Virus record (IMG/VR): IMGVR_UViG_3300033463_000003
Direction: 5' to 3' (one strand)
DNA length: 64,000 bases
From: a virus
Lineage: Duplodnaviria > Heunggongvirae > Uroviricota > Caudoviricetes
This document shows, piece by piece, positions 6,229 through 56,915 of this stretch (its first letter is position 1; the number at the start of each line of letters is the position of its first letter). A program made the translations under genes and the position numbers. The notes beneath the pieces were generated by a model. The model saw only the letters and a list, made by a program, of their open reading frames with translations, searched no databases and was not told the DNA's origin.

Positions 6229-6243
6229 TTTTACTTCTGCATT

Positions 6244-10222: not shown

Positions 10223-12163
10223 ATGGCAAATACAAAACCAAAAAATACCAAAAGTAAAAGCCCATTAGTTGGAAATCAAGCAAAACCAACAGTATTAGAC
10301 TCTACAACAAAATTAGATATTGATACCAACAAAGTATTTATTGATAATATTATTGATGCTGGTATTAATGGCGGTTTGAATTTAGGAGCATTAGAAAACT
10401 TTACCTCTATTTCAAATAACAGAGACCAAATTTATACGTTGATTGACACTATGGCAGCCGACTCTTCTGTTTCAGCTATTGTTAGAACTTATGCTGAAGA
10501 AGTTTGTGAAACCAGTGATAATGGCCATGTTGTCTGGTGTGAATCTCAAGATCCAAAAGTTAGTAAGTTTATTAATTACTTATTAAATGTTATGAATGTT
10601 GATAAAAATATTTATAACTGGACCTATAACTTAATTAAATATGGTGATGTTTATCTAAGATTATACCGTGAATCTGACTATGAAGATAAGCTTTTCAAAA
10701 AAGATAATATTGGTAAAGCTGATATGGGTAGAAAATTACATGAAGGTGCTGAAGATGTAAATGAAAGTGTTACATTAAATATGCATACAGCAAATGACCC
10801 ATATTCATACTATGTTGAAATGGTTCCAGATCCAAGCACAATGTTTGAATTAACTAAATATGGTAAAACATATGGCTACATTGAAACACCAAATGCAGAC
10901 ATTCAACAAAATTATCTTCAAACAATGCAAACAGAAACTCAAAACTATTTAAGTTATAGAATGAAATCGTCTGATGTTAATGTTTATCAAGCTGATGATT
11001 TTGTACATGCTTGCTTAGAAGATAATGTTTCAAGATATCCAGAAACTGTAGAAATATTTACAAACCAAGATGATTACACTAATTCTAAAAATGCATTAAC
11101 ATATAAAGTTAGACGTGGTAAATCACTTCTTTATGACTCATATAAAATCTGGCGTGAAAAACAATTACTTGAAAATGCTGCACTATTAAATAGAATTACA
11201 AGATCAAGTATTGTTAGAAATATTCAAGTTGAAGTTGGAAACATGCCAAAAGAGCAAGTCCAACTAACATTAAGAAGAATTAAAGAATTATTTGAACAAA
11301 AATCAAGTGTCAATGTTGGAAATGGCATGACAGAATATACTAACCCAGGTGCCATTGAAAATAATATCTTTACTGCTACACACAATGGTCAAGGTGCTAT
11401 TACAGTAAATAGTGTCGGTGGTGATGTTGATGTTAAAAACCTTGCTGACTTAGACTGGTGGAATAATAAATTCTATTCATCTTATGGCATTCCAAAACAA
11501 TACTTTGGCTGGACAGATGATAGCACAGGTTTCAATGGTGGCTCTTCATTAACAATTTTATCAAGTGTATTTGCTAAAGGCGTTAAAAGAGTACAAAATG
11601 CTATTCTTCAAGCAATTACCGATAGTATTAATTTAATTTTAGTTAATAAAGGACTTAAAGCATACCTTAATAACTTTGTTCTTAAAATGCGTGCCCCATT
11701 AACTCAAGAAGAAGTTGACTATCGTTCAAATCTTACTGATAGAATTAATGCAATTAGTAACTTACAAAGCTTATTCACTGATGTTGAAGATAAAGTTAGA
11801 AGATTAGAAATCTTAAAATCTTTAGTTGCTACATTAAACTATGGTGATGATATTATTGAAGAAATAGAAAAAGAAATTGAAGCTGCAAAGCAAGCTAAGA
11901 AAGAAAAAGCTGAAAAAGAGGCAGAAGAAGCTAAAGCTGCTGAAGCTGAAGCTGCTAGCGGTGAAGCAACAGAAACAACTGAAGAAGCACCTGCTGAAGA
12001 AAGCGATGAAGAGCTTGACTTAGGCATGGCTGAAATTGCTACAGAAGGCATTAAAGAAAAAACAGGTGAAATCTTATTAGAAGATACAATTGTTGAAAGT
12101 GATGATGACCTTCCAACTCCAGAAGAAGTTAATGAAAAAATTGACTTTTCTAAAAATAAATAG
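10223..12163 (+). CDS. Portal protein (T4 gp20-like)
   Basis: Motifs W..NLIKYGDVYL, GKSLL...KIWREKQLLE.A.LL.RITRS, VEVGNMPK, DLDWWNNKFYSSYGIPK. Sits between terL and the protease. Confidence 0.9.
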   Translation: MANTKPKNTKSKSPLVGNQAKPTVLDSTTKLDIDTNKVFIDNIIDAGINGGLNLGALENFTSISNNRDQIYTLIDTMAADSSVSAIVRTYAEEVCETSDNGHVVWCESQDPKVSKFINYLLNVMNVDKNIYNWTYNLIKYGDVYLRLYRESDYEDKLFKKDNIGKADMGRKLHEGAEDVNESVTLNMHTANDPYSYYVEMVPDPSTMFELTKYGKTYGYIETPNADIQQNYLQTMQTETQNYLSYRMKSSDVNVYQADDFVHACLEDNVSRYPETVEIFTNQDDYTNSKNALTYKVRRGKSLLYDSYKIWREKQLLENAALLNRITRSSIVRNIQVEVGNMPKEQVQLTLRRIKELFEQKSSVNVGNGMTEYTNPGAIENNIFTATHNGQGAITVNSVGGDVDVKNLADLDWWNNKFYSSYGIPKQYFGWTDDSTGFNGGSSLTILSSVFAKGVKRVQNAILQAITDSINLILVNKGLKAYLNNFVLKMRAPLTQEEVDYRSNLTDRINAISNLQSLFTDVEDKVRRLEILKSLVATLNYGDDIIEEIEKEIEAAKQAKKEKAEKEAEEAKAAEAEAASGEATETTEEAPAEESDEELDLGMAEIATEGIKEKTGEILLEDTIVESDDDLPTPEEVNEKIDFSKNK

Positions 12164-14899: not shown

Positions 14900-16273
14900 A
14901 TGATTATGAGACAAAATTTACTTGAAACTTATTCTCGTCAATTAAAAGTCGCAGAAGCTTATGTCGCAAAGAATTTCGATAAAACAGTCTCTGCTAATAC
15001 AAAATTGACAACTGCTGTCTTATTAGACAACACAAACAGATGGATGACAGAAGCTTTCAGTACAACCGCAACTGCTAGAGCAGATATGGGCGATTGGAAG
15101 AAATTCTGCTTAAACCTCACAAACATCGCTGTTCCATCATTAATCGCTAATGATTTAGTCATCGTTCACCCAATGACTTCTTACAGCGGATCTGTTGCAT
15201 ACTTAAAGTATGTCAGCAAAACTGATAAGGGTGGAGTCGTTAAAGGACAAGAATTCAACTCTGTTTTCGGTCTTGGTGAAATGAGCCCAGCTCGTGAAAA
15301 ATTCACAAGCCAAGTCATCGTTGAAGAAGTCGGTTCTAACGGCGAATTACTTTTACACCCAGTTAAGAACGGTCGCTTCGTTAACCCAGAAGATGAATCA
15401 AAACATGACGCTAAAGTCAAACGTGATGGTAAAGATGTTTACCTTGATGTCATCGGTGAAGGCGAAGAAGCTCACCTTGATGTTGCAGCTGGTGAAAAAG
15501 TTGCTTACATTGCTGCTGAATTCCAAATGGAACAAGTTCCAGCAATCGACATCCCAACAATTGGTCCAAAACTCGAACACATCGCTTTAGTTGCAGAACC
15601 AAGACGTATTGCTGTCCGTTATGACCAAATCACTGCTTTCCAAGCAAAAACTGACTACGGCTTCTCACTCGATAAACAAATCGCTGAACAAGCTTGTGGT
15701 GAATTAGCATACGAAATCGATACAGAAATCGTTGCAATGTTAGCTGAAGGTGCTGGTAAAGCTCTTCCAGAATTAACATGGTCCAAAGTTCTTCCTGTTG
15801 GCGTTAGCAAATTCGAACACTACAATGGCTTCTTAGAAGTTATTGAAAAAGCTCGTGCTATCATCTACAAGAGAACACAAAAATTCCATCCTAACTATAT
15901 GGTCATCTCTTCTGACGTTCTTCCAGTTTTAAGATTCGTTAATGGATTTACAGCTGTCAAGAATGCTAAGATGAATGGTCCTTATAAAGTTGGTGAATTA
16001 GATGGTTTATCAATCTATGTTTCCCCAATCCTTAAAGATGGCGAATTCTTCTTTGGATTAAACGGCTCTGACATGATGTCATCTGCTGGTGTCTATGCTC
16101 CATATATGGCTATCGTTCCAACACAATTACTTGGAACACCAGATGGTGGTTTAGCACAAGGCTTCTCAACTTGGTATGCCAAAGCCTTACTCAACACTAA
16201 TTTATTAGTTGCTGGTAAGATCATTGGTGGCGAACCATTCGAAGGCACCACTTACGGTGTCATCAATGGCTAA
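14900..16273 (+). CDS. Major capsid protein (T4 gp23-like)
   Basis: Motifs LIANDLVIVHPMT, ELAYEIDTEI, YAPY..I. Highly biased codons, strong terminator, probable maturation site WMTE/A. Confidence 0.93.
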   Translation: MIMRQNLLETYSRQLKVAEAYVAKNFDKTVSANTKLTTAVLLDNTNRWMTEAFSTTATARADMGDWKKFCLNLTNIAVPSLIANDLVIVHPMTSYSGSVAYLKYVSKTDKGGVVKGQEFNSVFGLGEMSPAREKFTSQVIVEEVGSNGELLLHPVKNGRFVNPEDESKHDAKVKRDGKDVYLDVIGEGEEAHLDVAAGEKVAYIAAEFQMEQVPAIDIPTIGPKLEHIALVAEPRRIAVRYDQITAFQAKTDYGFSLDKQIAEQACGELAYEIDTEIVAMLAEGAGKALPELTWSKVLPVGVSKFEHYNGFLEVIEKARAIIYKRTQKFHPNYMVISSDVLPVLRFVNGFTAVKNAKMNGPYKVGELDGLSIYVSPILKDGEFFFGLNGSDMMSSAGVYAPYMAIVPTQLLGTPDGGLAQGFSTWYAKALLNTNLLVAGKIIGGEPFEGTTYGVING

Positions 16274-16307: not shown

Positions 16308-16334
16308 AGAGGTTCCTTCGGGAGCCTCTTTTTT
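16308..16334 (+). terminator. Rho-independent terminator with UUCG tetraloop
   Basis: agaggttcc-ttcg-ggagcctct-ttttt. Confidence 0.9.
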
Positions 16335-16355
16335 ATATTAAATCTTAGCTGAATT

Positions 16356-16394: not shown

Positions 16395-19223
16395 ATGACT
16401 ACTTATGCAGCATATAATTTAAATGAAGATATTAGAAAAAAGAGTTCCTCAGGGGGAGTTTTTTACGAATTAGCTAAATATACTATTGAACATGACGGCT
16501 ATGTTTTTGGAGCAGCTTGAAATAAAGATTGATTTGTTGATATATGTTATATTAAGAAGCTAGAAGACTTACCAAAATTAATGGGGTCTAAATATGTAAA
16601 AGCTGATAATAAAAATACTTTTAAAGAATGTAAAGAATTTTTAGATTCTGGAAAACAAGTTTTATATTCTGGTACTCCTTGTCAAATATATGCATTAAAA
16701 TTTTTCCTTAAAAAAGATTATGATAATTTATTAACTGTTAGTGTTGCTTGTTTTGGGACTACTCCGCTTGTTGTTTGAAAAGACTACTTAGAAACAATTA
16801 AAAGACCAGATGCTGAAATAACAGAAATAAACTTAAGAGATAAATCTGATACTAATTGAAATAATTATAAATATACTATTAAATATTCTGATGGAAAAAT
16901 AATCTCAGAAAACCATTTAAATAATAAATATTCAAAAGCATATATAAGTGCTGGTTATTTTAATAAACCATGTTATAATTGTATAGCCAAAAAAGAGTTA
17001 AAATCTGATATTTCTATTGGTGATTTTTGAGGAGTTCAAGAAGCTTTGCCAAAAATTGATGCAAAGCTTGGAGTTAGTTTTATTATCTGTAACTCAAACA
17101 AAGGTGAAAAGATTATTAAAGCTCTTAATAATCTAAAGCTTGAAGAAATTAAAGATATAAATAAAGTTAAAAAATTTAACCGTGGAATTCAAGAGACTCC
17201 AGGAACTAAAGAGACTACTTATAATAAAAATATTTTTAGGAAAAAAGTAGCAATAGTTACAATGAATTTACATTTTAATATTGGAACAGCTTTACAAGCT
17301 TATGCCTTACAAAAAGTTATTTTAGATAATGGTTATGATTGTGATGTAATTACATGAGCTCGTAAAGATAGACTTCATTTTTGTGATACCTATATTAAAA
17401 TGAGAATTTTACCTACTGCACAAGATTATGATAAAATAAAAGAATCTGACTATGATATATTTGTAGTTGGTAGTGACCAAATTTGGAGAAAAAACACTAG
17501 TTTAAAAGACTATAAAGAAAACTATATTAATTACCCATTTTTAGGATTTACTGCCAACTGAAGCAAAGTTAGATTTTCATATGCAGCTTCATTTGGAACT
17601 TCTTGACAATATGATAAAGCAGAAGACGAAAAAATAACAAATATTTTAAAGCAATTTAATGCACTATCTACCAGAGAATTAAGCTCAATTATAGACTGCG
17701 AAGATAAGCTTGGCCTAAATTTTGAGCAACATATTGACCCAACTATGTTGCTAAACAAAGAAGACTACCTAAAGCTTTGTTCAAATATTACTGCAAATCA
17801 TAATAAAAATATTTTTAAATATATTTTACATGAGACAACAGATAAAACTAATTTTATTAATGAAAAAGCAAAAAAATTAGGATTACCAATAACTACACAT
17901 AATAAACTATATGTGGTAGACTGGCTTGCTAAGATGCGTGATACTAGTTTAGTAATTACAGATTCTTTCCATGGTGTGATTTTTTCTATTATTTTTAATA
18001 AACCATTTATTTACTGAAATACTAGAGACAGTGGTAAAGCTCGTTTTGAAACTATTGAAAAATTATTTAATATCCAGAATAGACAAATTAAAGATAATTT
18101 TACTATTACTGATGAATTGCTTAAACCGGCTAATATTAATTTAAATAATAACAGACAAAAAAGTTTGGATTATATATTAAAAAATTTGGCCGCTGTACCA
18201 CAACAATTAACTATTAACCTTTCACAAAATAAATTAAACTGGCAAAAAAATAATAAACAAGCCTGAATGTTATTTTTAAGCTCAGATAACTATATTTATT
18301 ATGTATTAAATGTTTATAAAAATTTATTAGATCACAATACTAAATATGCAGTATGCTGTGGTTATACAGAAGATGTTAGTCAAACAACTGTTAATATATT
18401 AAATAAATGTGGGATTATTACCTTTAAACTTGATACTAAAGCTATTTTGCATGAAAATATTAAACTTAGGGGCATATCTAATTGAATTAAAGCTTTTACA
18501 AAACTTGGCTTATTGAAGAACCAGCTTAATTTAGATAAAATGATCTATCTAGATTCTGACTTAGGAATTTATGATAATATTGATGAATTATTTAATAAGC
18601 CACATATGAGTGCAGTGCTAGATGGTGCGCCACTTCCAAATAGAAAACCTGGACCATATCAAATTGGAGATTCTATTTTTTGTTCTGGTCTGTTTGTTTG
18701 AGATTTTAAGAATAATAATAATGATGCTAATAAATTATTACAATTATTACCAAAGCTTCCAAAAGATGTAGAATGACATGACCAAAATGTTTTAAACTAC
18801 TACTATAAAGACTGACAAAATCAAAAAAATTTACATTTAGATTATACATATGGTCTTATGACTACTATTCCTAAATTTAAATTTGTTAACCCAGTTAGAG
18901 GTAAAAACTGACCTAAAGTTATACACTATATAGCTGGCCAAGGTGAGAAAACAAAAATACCATTTATAAATCAAAAATTTAATCTTCAAAGTTGATGTGA
19001 TATGCTATTAATAGATGATTACTATACTGAAATAAATAATAGCATTATTGCATTAAAACAATTATATGATTTTGATTTGCCTCTTATTAGTACTCAAAAT
19101 ATTGTACATAAAAAAGCAGATAAAATTGCAGCCAAAGAAGAAACTATAAAGTGAGCAGAAATAGAACAAAAGAAAAAAGATATACGTGCAGATGGCAGAC
19201 CAAATACTTACCTATATTTTTAA
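16395..19223 (+). CDS. 942-aa triple fusion: FrhB/FdhB-C-like (F420 hydrogenase beta) domain, polysaccharide pyruvyl transferase-like domain, GT8 glycosyltransferase
   Basis: One frame with 17 TGA and no TAA/TAG until 19221. Domain 1: SSSGGVF, GSKYV, GTPCQI, SDISIGDF[W]G. Domain 2: NIGTALQAYAL, VGSDQIW, SYAASFG, DPTMLL, TDSFHG. Domain 3: FTKL, IYLDSD, [W]HDQNVLN, VIHY. Confidence 0.88.
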
Positions 19224-19232
19224 GGAGATTAT

Positions 19233-20021
19233 ATGATAAAAAAATACTTCGGAATTATTTCTTGGTTCCCAGATGATGAACCGCATAGGGGCCAAAGACT
19301 CAGTAGACTAAATCAAACATTTAAACATTTAACTGATTTATTTGGAACAGAAATAGAATTTTTAATTATTGCTCAAAACTGGAAAGATTATAAGGTTCCT
19401 GAATTTGTTAAGCACACTATAATTCATAAATTTGATAAGCTTGGTATTCTTGGAGCCAGAAAAATGCTACGTGAAAAATTCTTAGAAAGTGACTATGATT
19501 ATCTAATTATGTGTGATGATGATATTGTATTAAAACCAGAGATTGAAAATGCACCACAAAAATATATGGAAGAATTAGACAAATATCCACAAGGTTTTTC
19601 ATTTGTTAGATATGGCTGGTCGCTAACTTTTTGTGCAATTTCTAAATATATTTATGAAAAAGAGCCTATGGTTGATGTAGACCCAGAAAAGAATGAAGGA
19701 TATGAAGATATGGTATTTCCTTTACTTCTTCATTATAAATACCCACAAAATGAATTCAAAACAAGTAATTTATTTAGTTTCCACCAACATGAGGCAAAAT
19801 TCAAAAAAGATCACAAGTCTACATGGATGGTAAGAGGTATTGATTATAATGAAATACAAATAAATACTGATACCTATACTAAAAATTTTAAAGAGGGTAA
19901 TTTTAATATCGAAAAAATCAAAGAGGATATTAATAAATACTGGGCAGAAAGAAAAGCACAAAACAGTTATAACCCAAAACATGTTGCTGATGGACAAGAT
20001 AATTGTTTCTTATATTTCTAA
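19233..20021 (+). CDS. GT-A fold glycosyltransferase-like protein
   Basis: AAGGAG RBS. Motifs LGILGAR..L, YDYLIMCDDD (DxD) and GYED. Confidence 0.7.
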   Translation: MIKKYFGIISWFPDDEPHRGQRLSRLNQTFKHLTDLFGTEIEFLIIAQNWKDYKVPEFVKHTIIHKFDKLGILGARKMLREKFLESDYDYLIMCDDDIVLKPEIENAPQKYMEELDKYPQGFSFVRYGWSLTFCAISKYIYEKEPMVDVDPEKNEGYEDMVFPLLLHYKYPQNEFKTSNLFSFHQHEAKFKKDHKSTWMVRGIDYNEIQINTDTYTKNFKEGNFNIEKIKEDINKYWAERKAQNSYNPKHVADGQDNCFLYF

Positions 20022-20061
20022 CCTAAATATGCTATAATACATAGTATTATTTACTTTTATT

Positions 20062-20071
20062 TGCTAAATTA
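20062..20071 (+). promoter_or_regulatory. Putative late promoter TGCTAAATTA
   Basis: Motif copy upstream of the neck gene. Confidence 0.7.
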
Positions 20072-20108: not shown

Positions 20109-20834
20109 ATGACTAAAAAAGATGTTGCCGATGAAATAAAACTTGAACTTACTGGCCAAATCTTAGAACTTGAAATCGATGACTCAACAATTGACCTTAT
20201 AATTAGTAAGGGATTACGTGAGCTTCAAAGATTCTGGGATGAGTCATCAATGATAAGCGTTCCATATGCTTCTTGTATTGATTACTCAGGAACACCATTA
20301 GAAGATTCAAGCTCAATTGTTAAGGTATATAGAACGCAAGGCTTAGGTGTTGCAGGTGGTACAACTGATATATCTGTAAACTCTGACCCACTATATATGC
20401 AACAATGAATGATCTTCAGTAATGGTGGAACAATGTATAATTTAAATGATTATGTAATGAATTATGCAGCTTGGAGTACCTTATCCCAAATCAAAAATAC
20501 AATTTCTACAGATATGGCATTCAGAGAGGACAAGCACAATCACAAGCTCTATATTAATTGTGCTATGGGAGCTCCTAGCGGAATTACAATAGAGTATATA
20601 CCAAAATTACAAAAAGTTGAAGATATTAAAAGTGATTATTGAATTGATATACTAATTAAATTATGCTTAGCGTTAACAAAAATAACACTTGGCAGAATTA
20701 GAACCAGATTTACCCAATCAAATACACTTTGGGCACAAGATGGTGAAACAATGCTAAGTGAAGGAACCACTGAGCTTAAAGAATTACGTGATATGCTCAC
20801 ATCGAATTCTAATTTAATTTATCCAATTGATTAA
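20109..20834 (+). CDS. Neck/head-completion protein (T4 gp13-like)
   Basis: AGGAGG RBS. TGA at 20406 and 20640. C-terminus [W]I....LALTKITLGRIR..F......DGETMLSEG..E resembles gp13-type neck proteins. Confidence 0.7.
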
Positions 20835-20853: not shown

Positions 20854-23367
20854 ATGGAAAAACAACCAATTACAAAATTTGACCTTGAGGCTGCATTCAA
20901 AGCTTTAGACGAAATTGAAGTGCCTGCTGTTGAAGGTGGAATTATCGCTAATAAACCAGCTGTTTTATTTGAAGATATTAAAAGAGCTGATAAAACTTCA
21001 TTATTACTTGAAGATTACTATGATTTAGGCAGTAATGAAGATTTAGAACAAGCTAAAGAAGATCGCGAAGCAGAAGTTGCAAAAGCTAAACTTGCTAAGA
21101 TTGAAAAAATCGTTGACCTTGATGCTGAAACAGAAGATGACATACAACCTTCATATGTTGGCAAAGTTATTATTCAATGCCCACAATGTATGACACTCTT
21201 CTACAAAAACCCAGAAGATATTGAATATTCTGAAGAAAACCCAGATGTTGTTAATATTAATGAAACATGCCAACACTGTGGAAATAACTCAGGCTATACA
21301 TTAATCGGTAAGGTTGATAATGTTTCTGAAGAAGAAGCTGATAAGTATGAAGGTGGCGAAGAAGCTGCTGAAGAAGATGACCTTGACCTTGACTTTGGTG
21401 AACCAACTGAAGAAGTTGATGCTGAAGGAACTGGCGAGGCTGAAGTTGACGAAGAAGATGCTTTTGATTTAGATATTGAAGAAGAACCAGAAGAAGAGGC
21501 TGAAGAAGAAGTTAAAGAATCACTTAATGAAGATGCTGAAAGTGATGCTGAAGAAGAAGTTGAAGAAACTGCTGAAGCTGAAACCCTTGGTGAATTAGTA
21601 GATGAATTAACAGTTGCCGAAGAAGAAACACCTGTTGAATTTAAGCCAGTTGAAACACCAGAAGGTGAGGAGCTTGAAGTTAAAGGTTTAGAAATTGAAA
21701 CAGAAGAAGATCCAGAAAAGGTTGTTATTTCTGTTGATGTTGAAGCTAAAGAAGAAGGCTCTGAAGAAGCTAATGAAGAAGCAGCTGAAGAAGAAAAAGA
21801 AGAAGAAGAAGAACCTGTTGAAGAAAGCTTAAATGCTTCTGAAGAACAAAAAGATGCTGAAGAAGGTTCTGAACTTAAAACTGAAAATGAGTCTGAAAAT
21901 TTAACACTTAATGAAGAAACTGTTAATGAAGGTGTTGATAAAGATTTAGATGCAAAATTAAAAGCACATAATGATTATATTGCTTATCTTCAACAAATGA
22001 TTAAGCAAGAAGAAGAAGCTTTAGCAAAAGCAGACAATGAAGAAGTTAAAGCAGCTATTCAAAGAAGATTAGATGCTTTTGAACAAGATTTAAAAGATGC
22101 TTTGCCAGAAGCTGTTAAAGAAGAAGCTGAAGTTGAAGAATTACCAACTCCAGAAGAAGCCGGAGCAGAAGAAGTTAAAGAGGAAGAAAAAGTAGAAGAA
22201 AGCTTAAATGAAAGTTTAAATAATTCAGAAGTCCAAGCAGAAGCTAAAGAAGAAAGTGAATTAGCAACTGAAAATGAATCTGAAGAAAAAACACTCAATG
22301 AAGATGTTTCTGAAATTGAATCAGCTCTTACACAATTCTGCAACAGTTTAGATGAAAGCTGCGAAGGTGAAGAGTGTAAAGAATGCAAAGAAGATCTCAG
22401 CACTGAAATGAAATTAGCTGAATACGAAGCATCATTACCAGAATCATGTGCAGAAGGTAAAGACTGTAAAGAAGAAGTTTGCCCAAAATGTGGTAAAGCT
22501 CCTTGTGAATGTGAAAGCTTAAAAGAAGCTTCTGCTAGTGAATTTGAAGTTTCTGATGCTGATTTTCACAAGATGATTAACAGCCAATCATTTAAAGATT
22601 TTAGTGAAGAATTAGAAGAACATATTAATGAAGAACATCCAGCAATTGAAAGTGAACAAGAATATCAAGGTGTTGATAATCAAGTAGTTCCTTGTGAAAC
22701 AGAATTATTAATGACTCACTCTGAAGATGAAAAACCATTAGATTGCAAAATGGAAAAACCAGCCCTTGAAGAGCCAGTTGCTGGTGAACAAATTGATGTT
22801 AAAATTACTGAGGATACATTAACTGAATCTCCATCTGATATCTGCAATATGGCTGTTTATAAAGATGTTATTAATAGAATTGAACATGCTGGTGAAAGTG
22901 CTGTTGAAGAAGATTTAGAAGATAAGCATGATGAAACAGCTGAAAAAGAAGAAACAGATAGTGCAGAAGAAGTTGATAAAGTTATTAAAACTTGGGAAAG
23001 CTTAGAAGATTTACATGAAGCTTCATTAGATGATCATATTTCTGATTATTTAACTGAAGTATATTCTAATGTTGATAGCTTCCAAACAACAGCTTGCTCC
23101 CAAGAAGATAATAAATTAATTGTTGAAGGAAATATCTTATTCAAATCAGGCAATTCAAGAAAAACAACATTTGAATTTACCGAAAATAAAGAAGCTGAAA
23201 AAGAAAATGCCTCACAAGTTATTTATGAAGGCTTAAATAAAGATTTCGCTGATGCTCCAGCATTTACTTTAAAAGGTATTGCTGAAGAAAACGGAAAAAT
23301 TCTTGTTACAGAAAGCTTTGGCTATAAATATACAATTAACAATACTTTAGTTGAAGGTTTAAAATAA
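20854..23367 (+). CDS. 837-aa very acidic putative prohead core/internal protein with a Zn ribbon
   Basis: AAGGAG RBS. CPQC...CQHC, many ESLNE/ESLKE motifs, and an internal 33-aa duplication. Confidence 0.7.
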   Translation: MEKQPITKFDLEAAFKALDEIEVPAVEGGIIANKPAVLFEDIKRADKTSLLLEDYYDLGSNEDLEQAKEDREAEVAKAKLAKIEKIVDLDAETEDDIQPSYVGKVIIQCPQCMTLFYKNPEDIEYSEENPDVVNINETCQHCGNNSGYTLIGKVDNVSEEEADKYEGGEEAAEEDDLDLDFGEPTEEVDAEGTGEAEVDEEDAFDLDIEEEPEEEAEEEVKESLNEDAESDAEEEVEETAEAETLGELVDELTVAEEETPVEFKPVETPEGEELEVKGLEIETEEDPEKVVISVDVEAKEEGSEEANEEAAEEEKEEEEEPVEESLNASEEQKDAEEGSELKTENESENLTLNEETVNEGVDKDLDAKLKAHNDYIAYLQQMIKQEEEALAKADNEEVKAAIQRRLDAFEQDLKDALPEAVKEEAEVEELPTPEEAGAEEVKEEEKVEESLNESLNNSEVQAEAKEESELATENESEEKTLNEDVSEIESALTQFCNSLDESCEGEECKECKEDLSTEMKLAEYEASLPESCAEGKDCKEEVCPKCGKAPCECESLKEASASEFEVSDADFHKMINSQSFKDFSEELEEHINEEHPAIESEQEYQGVDNQVVPCETELLMTHSEDEKPLDCKMEKPALEEPVAGEQIDVKITEDTLTESPSDICNMAVYKDVINRIEHAGESAVEEDLEDKHDETAEKEETDSAEEVDKVIKTWESLEDLHEASLDDHISDYLTEVYSNVDSFQTTACSQEDNKLIVEGNILFKSGNSRKTTFEFTENKEAEKENASQVIYEGLNKDFADAPAFTLKGIAEENGKILVTESFGYKYTINNTLVEGLK

Positions 23368-45295: not shown

Positions 45296-48200
45296 ATGGG
45301 ACTATTACATTGGTGAACATTAAATAATACGTTAGAAGATAAAGTAGGTGATCTTACTTTAGTAAATTGGCATAATGCCACTTTTAGTAGTGGTAAAGTA
45401 ACAACATATTCTGGCCAAACAACTAGAGGAAGCTCTAATAACACTGAAAAGACTTTTTATCATGCAGTTGATTTTACTTCAGTTAGTACTAGTCTATCAG
45501 TAAGTTTTTGAATAAACATTAATAGCGACCTTACTTCTGGTTATTGTAGCCCATTTTTAATTGGCCCATGAAGCGCTTATGAATGGCCAACTGTTCGTTT
45601 TGGTTTAGTTTATTATTATGCGAGCAATAAATTAGTATTTGCTATTGCAGATGGTACTAACTATGCACTTGCTGATTCTTCTTCTACTAATATTACATTA
45701 AGTAGACATACATGATATCATATTACTGCAGTATATAATTATAGAAATAGCATTAGTTTATATGTTAACGGTCAAAAAGTTGCAGAAACTACTACTACTC
45801 TTGTACCTACTTTAACTGATTATTATTGTATTGGTGGTAATGCCACACAATGCTATGCTTTTAATGGATTAATTAATGATGTTCGTATTTATAATGAAGC
45901 TTTAAGTGAATTTGAAATTAAGGAACTTGCAAAAGGTCTTTGTTTACATTATACTTTTGACAGTGAAGAAAGCAATCTTTTAACCTCAGATATTACATTA
46001 GAAAATGGTGTAACTATCGACAATACAAGCCATCCATTTCCAGGGCATGGCCCAATTTATAAACTAACACAATCAGGTAATTTAAGTAATGTTTATAAAG
46101 GCATATATGAGACTGTTTCTAATGTTAAACCTGGTGATAAAATTACATTATCTTGTTGAATTTATACTGAAAATAAAGCGAGCTGTGATGCTGCACCAGA
46201 ACTAAGATGCTACCAAATTAAGTCTGGTGGGGGATCAACAAACTGGTATGGTCTTAACTGGCTAGACGATCAGATAGATGGCAAATGATGTTATTATTCT
46301 ATACAATATACCCTAGACTCAGATATGGCAACCACTATTTTTAGTGCTAATATTGTTAAAAATGGTACATATTGGATTACAGGAATTAAAGTTGAATATG
46401 GCACGACTGCTACACCATGAACTGGTTTTAAAAATATATCATCAATACCAACAAATCTTGTTTCATCGATTGAATCAAGCTTTAAACAGAATATAGTTAT
46501 AGATGGCATAAATGCTGTACATACTAATGGTAATAATACAGATACATATTTTAAAATAAATTTAAATAAACCATTGATACCAGGAAAAAAGTATTATATT
46601 AAATGTAATGTAAGTGGTTTTAATAATAATAAACAATTTTGAAGATTTGGTATTTGTGCACAAAGCTACTCAAACTTAAACAGTATTACTTTTCAAAATG
46701 GTGAATGTGAAGGTATTTTTGAGTATAAAGATTCACAATGAACTACACCAACACAAATATTATTAGATGATTATACTACATCATCTGGCCTATCAAGAGC
46801 AATATATATTTATATTACTAATATAGAAATATATGAATTACCTTATTTAATTGATGAAACAGGCTATAGAAATAATGCTTTAGTTATTGCTGAACCATTA
46901 AAAATTAAAGCAGACAATGACGTATGTTATTATGCTGCTAAATCAGATGGTGAATCAAAAGTTATAACACATAAACTACCTTTTACGAGTACTGGCTTTA
47001 CAGTTGCTATTTGAGTTAAAGATTCCTATGAAACTGCAAGTGATTGGTGGTGTGGACTTGAGTCAAGCGATAATAATATGTATGTAAACTTTGGCCCTAA
47101 TGGCACAAAAGAAGTTCAATTTGCAGTATTTAAACATACTAATGGCGACTTATATCAAACTATACAAACTCCAGACCAAGCTGACAAAAATAATTGGGTA
47201 CATTGAGTTGGCACTTTTGATGGTAGCAAAGCAAGGCTATATAAGAATGGTATAAAAGTTCAAGAAACAACAACTGTTGGAAGCTATAATGATCTTGCTG
47301 CTATAGATTGTTCATATCTCTTTGGAAGCCCAGGAAAAATGACAACAGAAGAAATTGCTGATTTTAGACTTTATACAACTAAATTTTCTGATGAAGATGT
47401 TAAAAAACTATATCAAAACTCAGCTATTATTGATAATAAATATAATTTGTATTCAAACTGTATTTGTGAAAAACCTGATAATACTTCTGAAATTAAAGTT
47501 AGAAAAAATAGTATTGAATTAAAAAATAATATTAGTGAAAACTTTTTTAGTCATGCTACTATTTTAGAATATATTGAATCAACTGGAACTCAATATATTG
47601 ACACTGGTATTACTGCAAGCTCAACCAATAAATACATATTAAAGATAAGTAAACAAACAGAGGCTGGCGGTATTTTAGGAAGTGATGACCACTGAGGTGG
47701 CTTCTTTATGTATAATCTAGCTCAAAATAGATTTTGTTTCCACCTACCAAATAAACAATTTAATATAACTGGTATAACAGATGAAATTCTTGATATCAAT
47801 TGCTCTCCTAATGGTCTAGTTATCAATGAACAAAGTGGAACAGAGGCCTCTGATAATAATTCATATGCAGGCACTTTAAAACTTTATCCAAAGTATCAAG
47901 GTGGCTATTTAAGAGGTAAGTTTAAACTATATTACTGCAAATTATATGATAATGATACTATAGTAAGAGACTTTGTTCCTTGTTATGACTTTGATTCTGA
48001 ACAAGCTGGCTTATATGATTTTATTAGTGGTGAATTTTATACTAACCAAGGAACTGGTGAATTTATTGCTGGAAATCCAAAAGTACCAGATGAATATCAA
48101 AATGTAGAATATATTGGAACTGGTGATAGCCAATATATAAATACTAATTCTTATGTTACACCAAATACAGCTTGGGAACTTACCTTTAGCTTAAATAATG

Positions 48201-48760
48201 ATGATTTTTATAAACAAATTGCTGGTATGGTAGGATCACCAACATCACAAATTACAATATATTCTACTACTGGTAGCCCTGACGCCCAAAGAGTAATTGC
48301 TGTTCAGCATCAAGATTATGATGGTCCTTTTGCATATATAAATATTGACCAAAATAAACATAGAGTGTATCTATCATCTGGCAAGCAAGCAGTTGATGAT
48401 ATTGTTGTAAATAACACAAATGTAACTGTAGCATCTACTACACCAATATTAATTGGCTGTAGATATCAGAGTGGCCCAAGCGGCGATTGTAATGCTAAAT
48501 TCTATGCCTGTAAAATTTGGGAAGATAATACTCTAATCAAATATCTTGTTCCATGTTATAGAAAGTCAGACACTAAACGTGGAATGTATGATATAATTGA
48601 AAATGTATTTTATACTAATAACAGAGGTGGTAGTAGTGTTCCTGACTTTACTTATGGTGAAGCTACTGACTATGGTGATATTCCAGAAAAAATAACAATA
48701 GATAAATTAAAGATATATAAAGATAAAACACTTAGAGTAAATAAGATAGGAGAATTCTAA
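45296..48760 (+). CDS. Tail adhesin B1, 1154 aa: LamG/concanavalin-like domains, a carbohydrate-binding-like domain, and 2 YIESTGTQYIDTG-type repeats
   Basis: Single frame with many TGAs. Motifs SVSF[W]I, T[W]YHITAVY, LYVNG, INDVRIYNEALS, KVEYGTTATP[W]. Confidence 0.8.
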
Positions 48761-51791: not shown

Positions 51792-54700
51792 ATGAGTCTA
51801 CAAATTTGGCTTCCATTAAATAATGATATAAAAAATTATGGCACAGACCATAATGTTGTTTTTAGCAATAGAGTTGAAGCAACATCTATTTCTGGTGGTA
51901 AAGTAACTAAAAACTGCTACTATTTTACTCCTGAGGGGCATGACCGTGGTACTGACTATGGCCTATATACTACAAACTCTGGTTCTTTAGCCACATATTT
52001 TAATGATCACTCATGGACAATGGCTTTTTGAATTAAAACAGGTGTTAGTATACAAAGTGATGTTTTTTGTATTAGTGGTCCAGACTCAGAAAAAAACTAT
52101 GAAACAAGATGCTATATTGCTGGCGAAGCTGATGTTGGTAGATTTGTTTTTGAAGTTAAAGATGGAAACACATATAGGTACCCTAGCACAGATGATATAG
52201 CAGTTAATGACAGTAATTGGCACCATATTACTATTGCATATGACTATAATAAAAATAAATTTTATTGCTACTGTGATGGAGTTTTAAAAACGGCTCCTCA
52301 ACTTACTAATGGTACATTTAATAAAAATATTACTGGCATAAGCATTGGTAGAAATTATGCTGGTAATATATGGTTTGATGGTTTCATTAATGATTTCAGA
52401 ATTTATGACCATGCTTTGTCATCAGAAGAAGTACTAGAATTATCACAAGGTTTGGTTGCTCATTATTCTTTTAACTGGGAAGAGTTTTATCAACCAATTG
52501 AATATATTGAAAGTACTGGTACTCAATATATTGATACTGATATTAAATTTAATACAGGAAATACTTATGAATTAAGATCAAAAATAGAGTTTGATAATGT
52601 CACTGAACCAAACCAAATTATTGGCTATGATGGTCACGCTGGAAATGGTATTGGAACATCCACTAACACTTGATGGTTAGATAATGCTGCTAGTGTTTCT
52701 TGTAGTACCAATACTATTTATGATATAATTTGGACTCGTAGTGATACTAGCTGAACAAGAACAATAAATGGAACAAGCTATTCTGGAAGTGCTCAAATTG
52801 GCTCACAAACATATAATATCCCAATTTATTTATTTGCAACACGTAAACCAGATGCAACACCAGCATATAGTATTGGCTATTGGTGCTATATGAAAATGTA
52901 TTATTGCAAACTTTATGAAAATAATACTATTGTTCGTGATTTTATTCCTGTAATAAGAAAAATAGACCACAAACCAGGACTTTTTGACTTAGTAGAAAAT
53001 AAATTCTATGGCAATGATGGTACTGGTGAATTTAAATACCCAAATTCTAATGCTGAATATGAATTTTTAGAATATATTGAATCAGGTGACCACCAATATA
53101 TAGATACTGGCTGGATACCTAATTTTGATGTTAGTTGAAAAGTTGAAGCAGTTGTAAGCATTCCAGATAATAGATATAGATATTGTATTGTATCAAATGC
53201 TAATGCACAGACTGCTACTGCTAATGAAAAAGAAGTCAGCCTAGAAATTAATGATGCTAATAATAGTTCTGAACCAAATGTAATTTGTGATGGCCGCCCA
53301 AGATTCTACATAAATGGTGGTGATACTCAAGGATATGGTATTGCTCTGGTTCCACCAGGTGGCTCGTCAACAATAACTAACAATAAAAAAGCTAATGTTG
53401 AGTACTCATATAACGCATCTACACATGATTGCTATGTAAGTTACCGTAATCTTGATGGAAGTGGTGAAAGTTCAAATAGTGTATCTAAAACATTTTCTGG
53501 GCAGTCACAATCTAGCACAATGCTTTTATTCATAGATAGAAAAAAACGTTATGATGTTTTTAATCATTCTCTTAGAATATATAGCTGTAAAATAACAGAA
53601 AACGGTAAAGTAGTTAGAGACTATGTTCCAGCAAGAAGAAAATCAGATGATAAAACTGGAATGTTTGATATGGTACATAGTGAATTTGCTAATTCAACTA
53701 GTGGTTTTACTACGCCTACTGATTACACTACACCGACTGACTATAAGTTTATTGACTATATTGAAACAAGTGGTACACAATATATTGATACCGGTTTTAA
53801 TCCATATAATAAAAACACTACTGTTGAATTAGATGCCCAAGTATTAAATGTTACTAGCTCACAAAATTTATATCAATTTTTTGGTTGTTTTGACCAAATT
53901 GTTCGTTTCCATATTGGCCTTTATAATAATGGAGCTGGTTTCCACCCAGGCATAGGAAGTGCATATGATACTAATGCTTATAACTATGATACTGACAGAC
54001 ATAAATTTAGTCTAATTAGTAACAGTGAAGAAAGAGCATTTTATGTAGATGGCATTTCAAAATGAACAACAACCAATACTGCTACACTACCAAATCTAAA
54101 TGTGTATATTGGCGCTGGTAATTGAAGCGGAACTGCAACAAGTGATACTCACTGAGGCTATACAGGCAGTTCTAGAATTTATGGCTGTAAAATTTGGAAT
54201 GATACTTCATTAGCTCATAATTTTATTCCAGCAATTAGGCTTAATGATAATAAACCTGGATTATATGATTTAGTTAGTAATAGCTTTAAACCAAACCTAG
54301 GTGATGGTGAATTTGATTCACCAGCTTTATATCACCCAGTAGATTATATTGCTTCAACTGGAACACAATATATTGATACTGGATATGCTTATAATAATAG
54401 TAATGATAATGCTAGAATTGTTGTTGATTGGTCTGCTATTGACCTATCAAATGGAAATTACTTTGAATATCGTGTTGGTGGAGCTCAAAGTGACAGTCGT
54501 TCAATGGTTTTATATGGTACACCATCAACATCAACAGAATTAAGATTAGGTGTTGGATCAGATGTTGGTAGTACTTCAGGTGATATTGCACTTAAAGATG
54601 CCAACAACAATGACATTAAAATACTTAAAGGCACAAGATATTTAATTGATGTTACAGCAAAAAATAAAAATATTGGTGGAACATTAAATGGAAGTACAAT

Positions 54701-56915
54701 TAGCGGCACATATCCTGGAACTGTTGGTAGCACAGCAAATTATTATATATTTGCTAATAATGAAAATGGCACTGTTGGATATAATGGTAGAGTAAAAATT
54801 TATAAATATCAATTATATGATAATGGCACTTTAGTAAGAGACTTTATTCCTGTAGTTAGAATATATGATAATAAGCCCGGCCTTTGGGAAAAAGTAGAAG
54901 GTAAATTTTATACTAACCAAGGAACAGGGGAATTTATTTGGAGTAGCTCTATTGATAGTCATGGTACAACTAGTAATGGTACATTATATGTAGATAGACA
55001 AAAGTTAACTGCTAGCTATCTTGGCTATGGAAACTGGCGCTCTGGGCTTGCTTGTAGAAATAAATATAGTAAATGCTCTACTGGTTTTACTGTCTATGAT
55101 ACTGTTAGTCATGTTATGGCCAACTTATGTACATCAAATAATTTTAGTGATAATAATAATGAGCTTTGAAAGTCTGGTTATGGAATTTATGCTGGTGGCA
55201 GCTCTCAGTGGATATATTATGCTGATTTTGGTGAGTGTCAGACAATAAATGATAGCAATAATAACCCAATTTCATATCAAGCTGGTGATAGACTTAAAAT
55301 TATACTAAATAATAACAAAGTCTATTACTACAAAAATGATCAAATAATACGTACAGTAAATAATACACATGGAGATCTTTATCCTGTGCTTTTATGCACC
55401 ACTGATGCTATAAATAATTACTTAGATATTGCTTTAACAACACTTCCAAGCCCAGTAGATGTAATAAAACCAATAAAAGATAATAGTGGCTATAATAATG
55501 ATATATCTGCATTTACCCCAGATTTAACAACAAGTAATGATACAGCTTTAGGAAATCAAAGCTTAGTATTTGATGAAACGAACTACCTTAAAAGTAGCTT
55601 AGATAGCTCATTTATTAAAGATAAGCTTACAACAAATATTTTAGTTTATAAAAATGATTGAAGCAATAATGTTAGTGAACAAATTATAGCTTGCTCAAAA
55701 GATAATACAATTGGAGCAACCTATAATGGTTGAAGCTTTGCTATTGGTTCCAATTCAGCAAGTGAAACAGGAACTGGCACATATTTAAAATTTGTAGTTG
55801 ATGCAGGAGCTGCTCATGCACAAGCAGCAAAACTAGACATATCTAGCTTAACATCAGGCTGGCATATGTTTACAGGAACATATGATTCTTTTATGGGCAC
55901 AGGCAACACAACAGGAAATTCATATGTTAAATTATATATTGATGGAAATCTTGCCGATACCGATATAATATCAAGTGCTCCAGCAATGCCAATTAACTAT
56001 GTTTCATCACATAATGTAACTATTGGTGCTAGATATAATAGAACTAATTATACAGTTACTGATTACTTTAATGGAAAAATTGCAGATGTTAAAATTTGGG
56101 CAACAACTTTATCAGCAGAAGATATTAAAGACCTATATGAAACAAAAGCAAAGATATATAATAACAATATTTTTGCTGCTAATAATATAAAAGCTATTGA
56201 CCAAGAGGCTATTAAAACATTTGTACCTGAACGTATAGCTGGTCATGGTAGTGGTGTAGTACTTAGTAAGCTTGGTGAAAACTGATATGAAGTGCTTAAA
56301 CCTGCTAACCTTAAATTTGGTGGCATTCAAATTCCTTGAAGATACCCTGATAGAGATGACGGAACACCTATTAACTTTACTGCTGGCCATTATTATAAGC
56401 TAAGTTTTGAAACATTACAAAGCTATAGCAGCGATTACTCAGAGATATGTAAATATATTCGTGGACACTCTAATGGTTTTACTACTATTGGAATTTATAT
56501 TGATGGACAAAAAGCTATAAATGATCTTTGGCATGTTACTAATAACTTAAACCCAACAGGTATTAATTTAAAACTTGAACGTTTATATGCAAGATGGAAA
56601 CACTATGATGTATACTTATTATATAATGCTAATTCGCCGGATGGTAATAATGGTCTATATATTCAACCAGAAAGAGGTAATACAGAAGCTCCTGCAAGTA
56701 ATACCCAGTATAGAAATATAGAACTTACTGACTATGGAACTACTGAGCCAATATTTAAAGAGTCAGAAGTAGCAACAATAACTTCTGAGCTTAAAGTAGA
56801 TAATGTTGCTTCACTACAATGAATTCAAACAACTACAGAAGGTTCACCAAATAAAAATTCAGTATATGTTGGTAAGAATAGAACATTAGTAGCCGCAGAT
56901 ATAAAAGAAATATAA
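51792..56915 (+). CDS. Tail adhesin B2, 1707 aa: LamG-like domains and 4 YIESTGTQYIDTG-type repeats
   Basis: All sub-ORFs lie in one frame, and the gaps contain only TGA. Ends TAA 56913-56915. Paralogous to 45296. Confidence 0.8.

Follow-up and report, generated by a model that had tools for sequence, protein, structure and literature searches.

By analogy of architecture, the described systems that appear nearest to the one considered here are the cargo-loading peptides of encapsulins and glycogenin. In encapsulins, as in the case below, unrelated enzymes carry one short, portable and conserved C-terminal peptide behind a flexible linker, and the shell has the HK97 fold that also forms phage capsids. 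Glycogenin joins a GT8 domain through a linker of variable length to a conserved C-terminal peptide, GN34, which recruits glycogen synthase (PMC9188544). Here, we analyzed a 64,000-nucleotide stretch of the tailed phage record IMGVR_UViG_3300033463_000003 (the window), in which two adjacent genes for glycan enzymes, P0001 and P0002, end in the same short peptide, referred to as the tag. To our knowledge, no targeting peptide has been described in a virus that is common to an entire set of interchangeable enzymes for glycan synthesis.

P0001 (942 residues; 16395..19223, + strand) and P0002 (262 residues; 19233..20021, + strand) were translated with genetic code 4, and in both the stop codon immediately follows ADG-x4-[YF]LYF, with 7 of the last 11 residues identical. 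Tag and stop occupy 19188..19223 (+ strand) in P0001, with tag codons at 19188-19220 and the core YLYF at 19209-19220. The corresponding segment of P0002 lies at 19986..20021 (+ strand), with tag codons at 19986-20018 and the core FLYF at 20007-20018. These two are the only ones among 219 open reading frames (ORFs) of at least 60 residues in the window to end in the tag. When the last 11 residues were compared in register with the stop, the pair reached a BLOSUM score of 41, against 17 for the runner-up among the 903 called ORF pairs (z = 6.6), which confirms the observation from which an earlier note on this DNA started. At the DNA level, the two tags are identical at 21 of 33 nucleotides, and 4 of the 7 shared residues use different codons. 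Synonymous differences at conserved tag residues are present in most tag pairs that we compared, which argues against recent copying. The earlier claim that a portable tag is under selection at the protein level is borne out. The motif proposed in that note, WAE...ADGxxNx[YF]LYF, was over-specified. Its [YF]LYF core stands, ADG and N are frequent and dispensable, and WAE is a chance resemblance, as it is absent from the P0001 orthologues in loci L177 and L226 and falls within the last GT-A helix in P0002.

Judged from the sequences, the core of the tag found in the window (class A; see below) is [YF]LYF-COOH, with ADG a common, optional addition, because some tags keep only ...N/T-x-YLYF. In 30 aligned tails, G-9, L-3, Y-2 and F-1 are invariant, and the L, Y and F of the core are invariant in 30/30 members of the P0002 family. 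The frequency of the top residue is 0.70 in the core domain, 0.34-0.51 in the linker (0.34 in P0002) and 0.92-0.94 over the last four residues. The linkers that precede the tag are variable and often Lys-rich. In P0001, a Lys/Glu-rich linker runs from the GT8 domain to the tag (approximately residues 905-931; 19107..19187, + strand), as delimited by its sequence, column conservation and the model of a tagged homologue, P0128. In P0002, pLDDT (predicted local distance difference test) values and column conservation place a variable, disordered linker at approximately residues 246-251 (19968..19985, + strand). In AlphaFold2 models of P0002 and the GT8 homologue, the last ~17 residues are unpacked with pLDDT of 48-69; those of P0002 have values of 48-59 and no secondary structure, and the stretch of P0128 equivalent to the P0001 linker is unpacked with falling pLDDT. 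By these models, the tag is not part of the enzyme fold in either family, and the charged linker noted earlier is supported as a flexible one. The tag is also always terminal: in real ORFs, we counted 19 unique cases at the C-terminus and zero elsewhere in the sequence. Many tags look like a strand-turn-strand of the form [TY][IVM]G-x4-YLYF. A foldon-like or cell-wall-binding-repeat-like hairpin was considered and rejected, as a profile of the tag has no match in the PDB and minimal tags lack the first strand. A full-text literature search for the motif and for tags on phage glycosyltransferases returned nothing relevant.

Next, we examined the enzymes that carry the tag in the window. Three domains are fused in P0001: one FrhB-like, one of the polysaccharide pyruvyl transferase type and, at the C-terminus, a GT8 domain that resembles glycogenin. 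Pfam identifies PF04422/PF04432 and PF04230 in the usual order of FrhB followed by pyruvyl transferase (103.3, 73.2 and 25.7 bits, all above cut-off), and residues 600-942 match PF01501 (GT8) at 36.2 bits against a gathering cut-off of 24.3. An orthologue in L177 is 86% identical. The FrhB-pyruvyl and GT8 parts exist as two separate genes in L088 and in the genome G016. The model of P0128, which is 44% identical and ends in the same tag, best matches glycogenin (E of 2e-16, TM 0.62-0.75), followed by LgtC and GlyE. Based on this folded homologue, the C-terminal domain of P0001 has a GT-A fold like that of solved GT8 enzymes.

P0002 has no match in Pfam or PHROG. Its AlphaFold2 model (pLDDT 92) has a GT-A fold, and the best Foldseek matches are AvpGT, TarP, WrtF, TarS and SpsA, with a probability of 1.0 and TM of 0.45-0.5 for TarP, TarS, SpsA and WrtF. 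Residues D95, D96 and D97, which correspond to the Asp-x-Asp metal site of the GT-A fold, are invariant in 45 sequences. The catalytic domains of P0001 and P0002, described earlier as unrelated, are indeed unrelated by sequence, but both adopt GT-A-type folds. We found 125 near-length homologues of P0002, many on contigs of 100-270 kb, and more than 280 family members in all. No relative of P0002 or of the GT8 protein was found in GenBank phages; all P0002 homologues, and all sequences compared here, come from metagenomes. P0002 thus represents an undescribed GT-A family that is tied to the head modules of T4-like jumbo phages. Short, untagged P0002-like transferases (212-224 residues) also occur in the head modules of other T4-like jumbo lineages, in the interval from a portal-adjacent gene of 150 codons to the protease-scaffold gene (L013 7476-8150, L018 9369-10019, L024 7198-7836 and L025 5846-6487).

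The tag is found well beyond this pair, as the earlier note had anticipated for sugar-modifying enzymes of phages with this capsid type: diverse transferases adjoining such capsid genes carry it. Almost all transferases for sugar polymers that these uncultivated giant phages encode next to virion genes are tagged. In related phage contigs, the class A tag is present on at least seven enzyme architectures. Apart from those in the window, these include Stealth, GT2+Stealth and GT-A+Stealth proteins, TagF-like glycerophosphotransferases, PS_pyruv+GT92 fusions, FrhB+PS_pyruv proteins, a 268-residue protein of unknown function and a 227-residue member of an undescribed family of ~220 residues. Each polypeptide has one tag: where FrhB-pyruvyl and GT8 are separate (L088 and G016), each protein is tagged, and the fusion in the window has the terminal tag only. 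A scan of metagenomes yielded ~28 real tagged ORFs, all in these enzyme families. In G016 (232 kb, 100% complete by CheckV), only two real ORFs end in the core motif, and both are adjacent glycan enzymes. The tagged real ORFs of five partial genomes (G001-G005) are glycan enzymes only, the class C ends of G006 (93% complete) are likewise on glycan enzymes only, and no further tagged ORF was found in the complete genome G007. In a scan of 185,579 prokaryote species, each represented by a single genome, 49 pattern matches were found, with 0 at real gene ends; the tag is therefore absent from the ends of these cellular genes. The activated-precursor enzymes encoded in the same islands, which include cytidylyltransferases, an Asn-synthase-like protein, NAD-salvage enzymes and FTHFS (formate-tetrahydrofolate ligase), are untagged.

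The ~220-residue family, which has no Pfam or PHROG match, is encoded almost always directly upstream of a P0002-type transferase (L005 7460-8140, L011 7444-8139, L009 8063-8827, L019 2558-3241, L002 7563-8210, L007 9346-9999 and L017 843-1547). It is sometimes fused to one (L016 8699-10696 and L018 9992-11968), and one member is tagged. It is probably another enzyme of the pathway.

Within enzyme families, the C-terminal ends fall into classes. The catalytic domains of the P0002 family align throughout, and among 120 hits we counted 48 proteins of class A (...[YF]LYF), 9 of class B (LPxL[DN]E and then a few residues that are hydrophobic) and 4 of class C (...GLP[DE]EWWKE-x-[FY]), together with a few of variant E (Y[IF]G...Y[IF]G[LF]) and many without any extension. 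One catalytic domain of this family may carry class A, class C or nothing. The 24 hits of the GT8 family show the same pattern, with 15 of class A, 3 of class C and 6 bare proteins that end at the domain boundary. A putative class D (W..GW..E.Y..F.KKYGL) was rejected as a tag, since it is the helical end of one P0002 subfamily and its fusions and is not common to neighbours. At every locus seen, neighbouring enzymes share their tag class, and no mixed-class locus was observed. Class A pairs or quartets were found at more than 13 loci. Class C pairs comprise a Stealth and a P0002-type protein in G006/L003 and two GT8 paralogues in L238, the class B pair is a GT2+Stealth and a P0002-type protein in L002, and variant E pairs are present in L014 and L020. 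Within a lineage, the enzyme content of the island varies greatly, with tag class and genomic slot fixed. In the window lineage, the slot lies between the genes for the major capsid protein and gp13; in the class C lineage, it precedes weakly fibre-like, Kelch and leucine-rich repeat genes. Tagged islands of other lineages adjoin NrdD/SNF2 and fibre-like genes, not the capsid gene.

The tag is thus modular and terminal, is under selection, is specific to phages and restricted to transferases, and co-varies in class between neighbours. We believe, with a probability of roughly 0.55, that it is a short linear docking or targeting motif that is read in trans by a lineage-specific protein. This reading is based on sequence patterns: the peptide is short, strictly terminal, conserved and located behind a disordered linker, it is found on unrelated enzymes of one pathway, and its class is fixed in each lineage. 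In such a mechanism, a disordered, often Lys-rich linker would join the enzyme to [YF]LYF with its free carboxylate, usually after [AY][DIVM]G and a turn. The tag would be placed on each polypeptide that transfers a sugar, sugar-phosphate, glycerol-phosphate or pyruvate onto a glycan, with enzymes that make activated precursors only excluded. The tagged genes lie in a hypervariable "glycan island" of code-4 T4-like jumbo phages. The tag could then bring the acquired transferases of a phage to one common, lineage-specific partner or site, where they would act jointly on the same acceptor. From this pattern we infer that the tag binds in trans, and also which kind of partner and acceptor would be involved.

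For the partner, the most probable class is a phage-encoded, virion-associated protein, because the island is linked to putative late promoters and embedded in virion modules. Two further observations favor such a partner, namely the untagged P0002-like transferases in head modules and the difference in head and class of G006. This phage shares its tail module with the window phage, has a head module without a BLAST-detectable match, and carries class C tags. When a partner was sought by comparative genomics, G006 was the sole lead, and it is a single, phylogenetically confounded data point. At 75%, the capsid protein of G007 is no further from that of the window than the capsid proteins of class A relatives are, and G007 nevertheless has different tags. 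A more specific version is that the tag is a lineage-specific "zip code" that docks captured transferases on one head-neck virion protein. There they would build a teichoic-acid-like or pyruvylated glycopolymer coat, swappable by exchange of island genes under a constant docking code; we put this forward tentatively, and would be somewhat surprised if it held in full.

Several observations weigh against docking in trans. Some island transferases have no tag, including a second GT8 protein in L088, GT92-like and P0002 paralogues in L021 and a fusion in L009, so the tag is not obligatory for every transferase. In G007 and in G008, the variant E tags are degenerate, and within a genome the two enzymes carry different versions. 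A loose physico-chemical requirement accounts for this better than a tight pocket does. The two tags of G006 match at 30 of 36 nucleotides; occasional exchange of 3' ends is therefore possible, and the co-variation of class could partly reflect such recombination. Finally, a peripheral membrane anchor would likewise combine a basic linker with aromatic terminal residues.

If the tag is such an anchor, which we consider unlikely, the Lys-rich linker and terminal aromatics would tether the transferases to the host membrane on its cytoplasmic side. The enzymes would then modify lipid-linked teichoic-acid or capsule precursors, and the host surface would be remodelled instead of the virion being glycosylated. 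TagF-like, Stealth, TarP-like GT-A and pyruvyl transferases normally act on membrane-anchored polymers, and the tagged enzymes belong to such families by their Foldseek and Pfam matches. The basic linkers, the W/Y/F-rich ends of all tag classes, the degeneracy of variant E and the fact that no phage partner was found point the same way. However, a generic anchor would hardly require invariant G-9, L-3, Y-2 and F-1 in exact register with the stop across enzymes that are 40% identical, and the sharply distinct, lineage-specific classes exceed the specificity it would need. Classes B and C are acidic, which is unfavorable at an anionic membrane, the tag of 4-11 residues has no predicted amphipathic helix, and neither flippase nor exporter genes were seen among those of the islands. 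The matching of classes within genomes would also be explained if the tags bound each other, as a β-hairpin or zipper similar to the foldon of T4 fibritin, so that enzymes of the same class formed mixed oligomers without a third protein. No other tagged protein is present in complete genomes, the strand-turn-strand look of [TY][IVM]G-x4-YLYF would suit such an assembly, and members of these enzyme families are often fused covalently, which indicates that proximity is selected. We nevertheless regard co-assembly as quite unlikely. Minimal tags that keep only ...YLYF have lost the first strand, the monomer models contain no hairpin, and phages with a single tagged enzyme are seen in the examined parts of G011 and G012. 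In addition, the strict terminal register suggests recognition of a free carboxylate.

The position of the island beside the capsid gene raises the question of whether the tagged enzymes are themselves cargo, with the tag binding the inner face of the HK97-fold shell or an acidic scaffold, and the enzymes loaded into the head for delivery together with the DNA, like encapsulin cargo or the internal proteins of T4. This comes closest to the analogy drawn in the earlier note, which proposed the capsid, prohead or scaffold as the common partner. Their layout of enzyme, flexible linker and short conserved C-terminal peptide is that of encapsulin cargo, and a nearby, hyper-acidic, core-like protein of 837 residues is opposite in charge to the basic linkers. 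Tag class also differs in G006, where the head module is too diverged for BLAST and the tail module is conserved. Cargo loading is very unlikely in our view, as biosynthetic transferases need pools of nucleotide sugars and would have no obvious use inside a capsid, class B and C islands lie away from head genes, and G007 combines a capsid protein like those of class A relatives with other tags. The least probable of these four rival explanations is a regulatory degron, in which a host or phage protease or adaptor would read the hydrophobic C-terminus and time the removal of the transferases. Non-polar C-terminal tails are a classical form of degron and of PDZ ligand, the motif is confined to the terminus, and the classes could follow host lineages. 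It is difficult to see, however, why transferases alone would be degraded and precursor enzymes of the same island spared; the tagged genes also appear to be late lytic from their promoter-like motif, and neither a protease gene nor a PDZ gene was found when the window was searched.

We also considered and rejected a sliding-clamp or replisome hub, as no other tagged ORF was found in G016, G007 or G006, and no PolB or gp45-type clamp was detected. PF00136 and PF02916 are absent from the five records searched, including G006-G008 (93-100% complete). These three genomes have T4-like virion modules yet no detectable family-B DNA polymerase or gp45-type clamp, which indicates a replication module of another type. 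Glycosylation of DNA with hydroxymethyl bases likewise had no consistent support. A ThyA-family gene in G007 and G008 scores 252-258 bits, which fits an ordinary thymidylate synthase, and no ThyA-family gene was found in G006. An island protein of 435-470 residues (L014 5836-7248; orthologue in L005 6096-7403) has a sub-threshold match to the Mom family (E of 0.0026).

The translation used throughout, in which TGA is read as Trp (code 4), is supported by three lines of evidence. P0001 contains 17 TGA and 3 TGG Trp codons, and the TGA codons for W624, W769, W794 and W807 fall on invariant-Trp columns of the GT8 family. Furthermore, a complete 223-kb relative, G007, encodes a tRNA with anticodon UCA (L076, which is G007:1-20000, at 11081-11155; labelled SeC by ARAGORN) that is likely a TGA-decoding suppressor. 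G007 has 29 tRNAs in all, 27 of them in one block, and no tRNA gene was found in the window. The use of TGA is very uneven. P0002 uses TGG only, and the capsid, portal, protease and P0002 genes have zero TGA codons. By comparison, the Laminin_G_3 fibre proteins at 45296-48760 and 51792-56915 have TGA at 12 of 23 and 13 of 32 Trp codons, and the split FrhB-pyruvyl gene of G016 is rich in TGA, with 10 such codons. This unevenness suggests an origin of the accessory genes in a full code-4 background, or their adaptation to one.

The module around the two genes is T4-like and includes portal, protease-scaffold, sheath, tube, baseplate and fibre genes. The left border of the variable glycan island is a Gp23-like major capsid protein (14900..16273, + strand; PF07068, phrog_138), and the right border is a gp13-like neck or head-tail adaptor protein (20109..20834, + strand; phrog_211, PF26809). 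Synteny with the capsid gene is kept in L005, L009, L011, L014, L020, L021, L044 and L088, and the gp13-like gene is immediately downstream of the island in all loci of the window lineage. A terminator-like hairpin with a T-run lies directly 3' of the major capsid gene (16308..16339, + strand). A promoter-like motif, TTTGCTAAATTA, is located upstream of P0001 (16354..16365, + strand), as it is upstream of other late structural operons, and recurs upstream of the gp13-like gene (20060..20071, + strand), which marks the end of the two-gene cassette. Allowing one mismatch, this 12-mer has 13 matches in the window against 3.6 expected, 11 of them on the + strand and mostly in gaps that precede structural genes. 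The + strand sites of (T)TGCTAAATTA are at 6242, 12736, 12832, 16354, 20060, 26782, 29227, 37245, 49505, 57763 and 63000. This motif is probably the late promoter element of the phage, unlike the TATAAATA box of T4 late genes. With a hairpin after the capsid gene and the motif before P0001 and again before gp13, the cassette looks like a late transcription unit of its own.

Near the island, 20854-23367 of the window encodes the hyper-acidic, Glu-rich protein of 837 residues mentioned above, in which some patches are rich in Cys. Conserved domains at either end of this protein flank a hypervariable middle (616-1271 residues in relatives), the C-terminal end, ...Y-K-Y-x-I-N-x-x-L-V-E-G-L-K, is kept across lineages, and the protein is probably a scaffold or core component. 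In some islands, the genes that directly follow the capsid gene include the NAD-salvage genes NadE, NAPRTase, nicotinamidase and an adenylyltransferase-like gene (L088 4886-7926), or a full formate-tetrahydrofolate ligase (L141 309-1946; 563 bits).

If the tag is a docking code, it would explain how transferases of unrelated folds can be shuffled through one slot and yet act on the same acceptor. With a bait of 4-11 residues, that acceptor could then be sought directly by experiment. Its nature might decide between two roles for the glycans of giant gut phages, namely a teichoic-acid-like or pyruvylated coat on the virion and remodelling of the host envelope. The tag might also serve as a small, portable means of co-localizing enzymes.

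Several described systems share parts of this arrangement. The capsid targeting sequence of T4 is likewise a short peptide common to unrelated proteins (IPI-III and Alt) of a T4-like phage, but it is N-terminal and removed by the prohead protease, whereas the tag is exclusively C-terminal and is found on enzymes of one pathway. T4 gp43, gp33 and gp55 bind the clamp through short, hydrophobic or acidic C-terminal tails, and the T4 alpha-glucosyltransferase has been reported to use gp45. Different proteins, including a phage sugar transferase, are thus docked on one hub by short C-terminal tails, as we suggest for the tag; unlike in that system, no replication or transcription protein is tagged in complete genomes. 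The virion glycosylation systems of mycobacteriophages and the capsid glycans of chloroviruses and giant viruses (PMC9614988) may resemble the glycan island in that virus genes for cytoplasmic transferases adjoin those for structural proteins, with presumably late expression; here, this position holds for the window lineage, and islands of other lineages lie elsewhere. No common enzyme tag is described there, and the set found here (Stealth, TagF-like proteins and pyruvyl transferase) is teichoic-acid- or capsule-like.

The two nearest systems differ from the tag in other respects. The motif of encapsulin cargo peptides is unrelated in sequence, and the phage tag is limited to glycan transferases and comes in several classes that follow lineages. 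By this analogy, loading inside the phage shell would be one of several possibilities, and not a particularly plausible one for biosynthetic enzymes. Glycogenin has the same layout of linker and C-terminal docking peptide, and is also the closest structural match of the phage GT8 domain. However, GN34 is a helix-turn-helix of ~34 residues that belongs to one enzyme, whereas the phage tag has 4-11 residues, is modelled as coil, and recurs on at least seven architectures.

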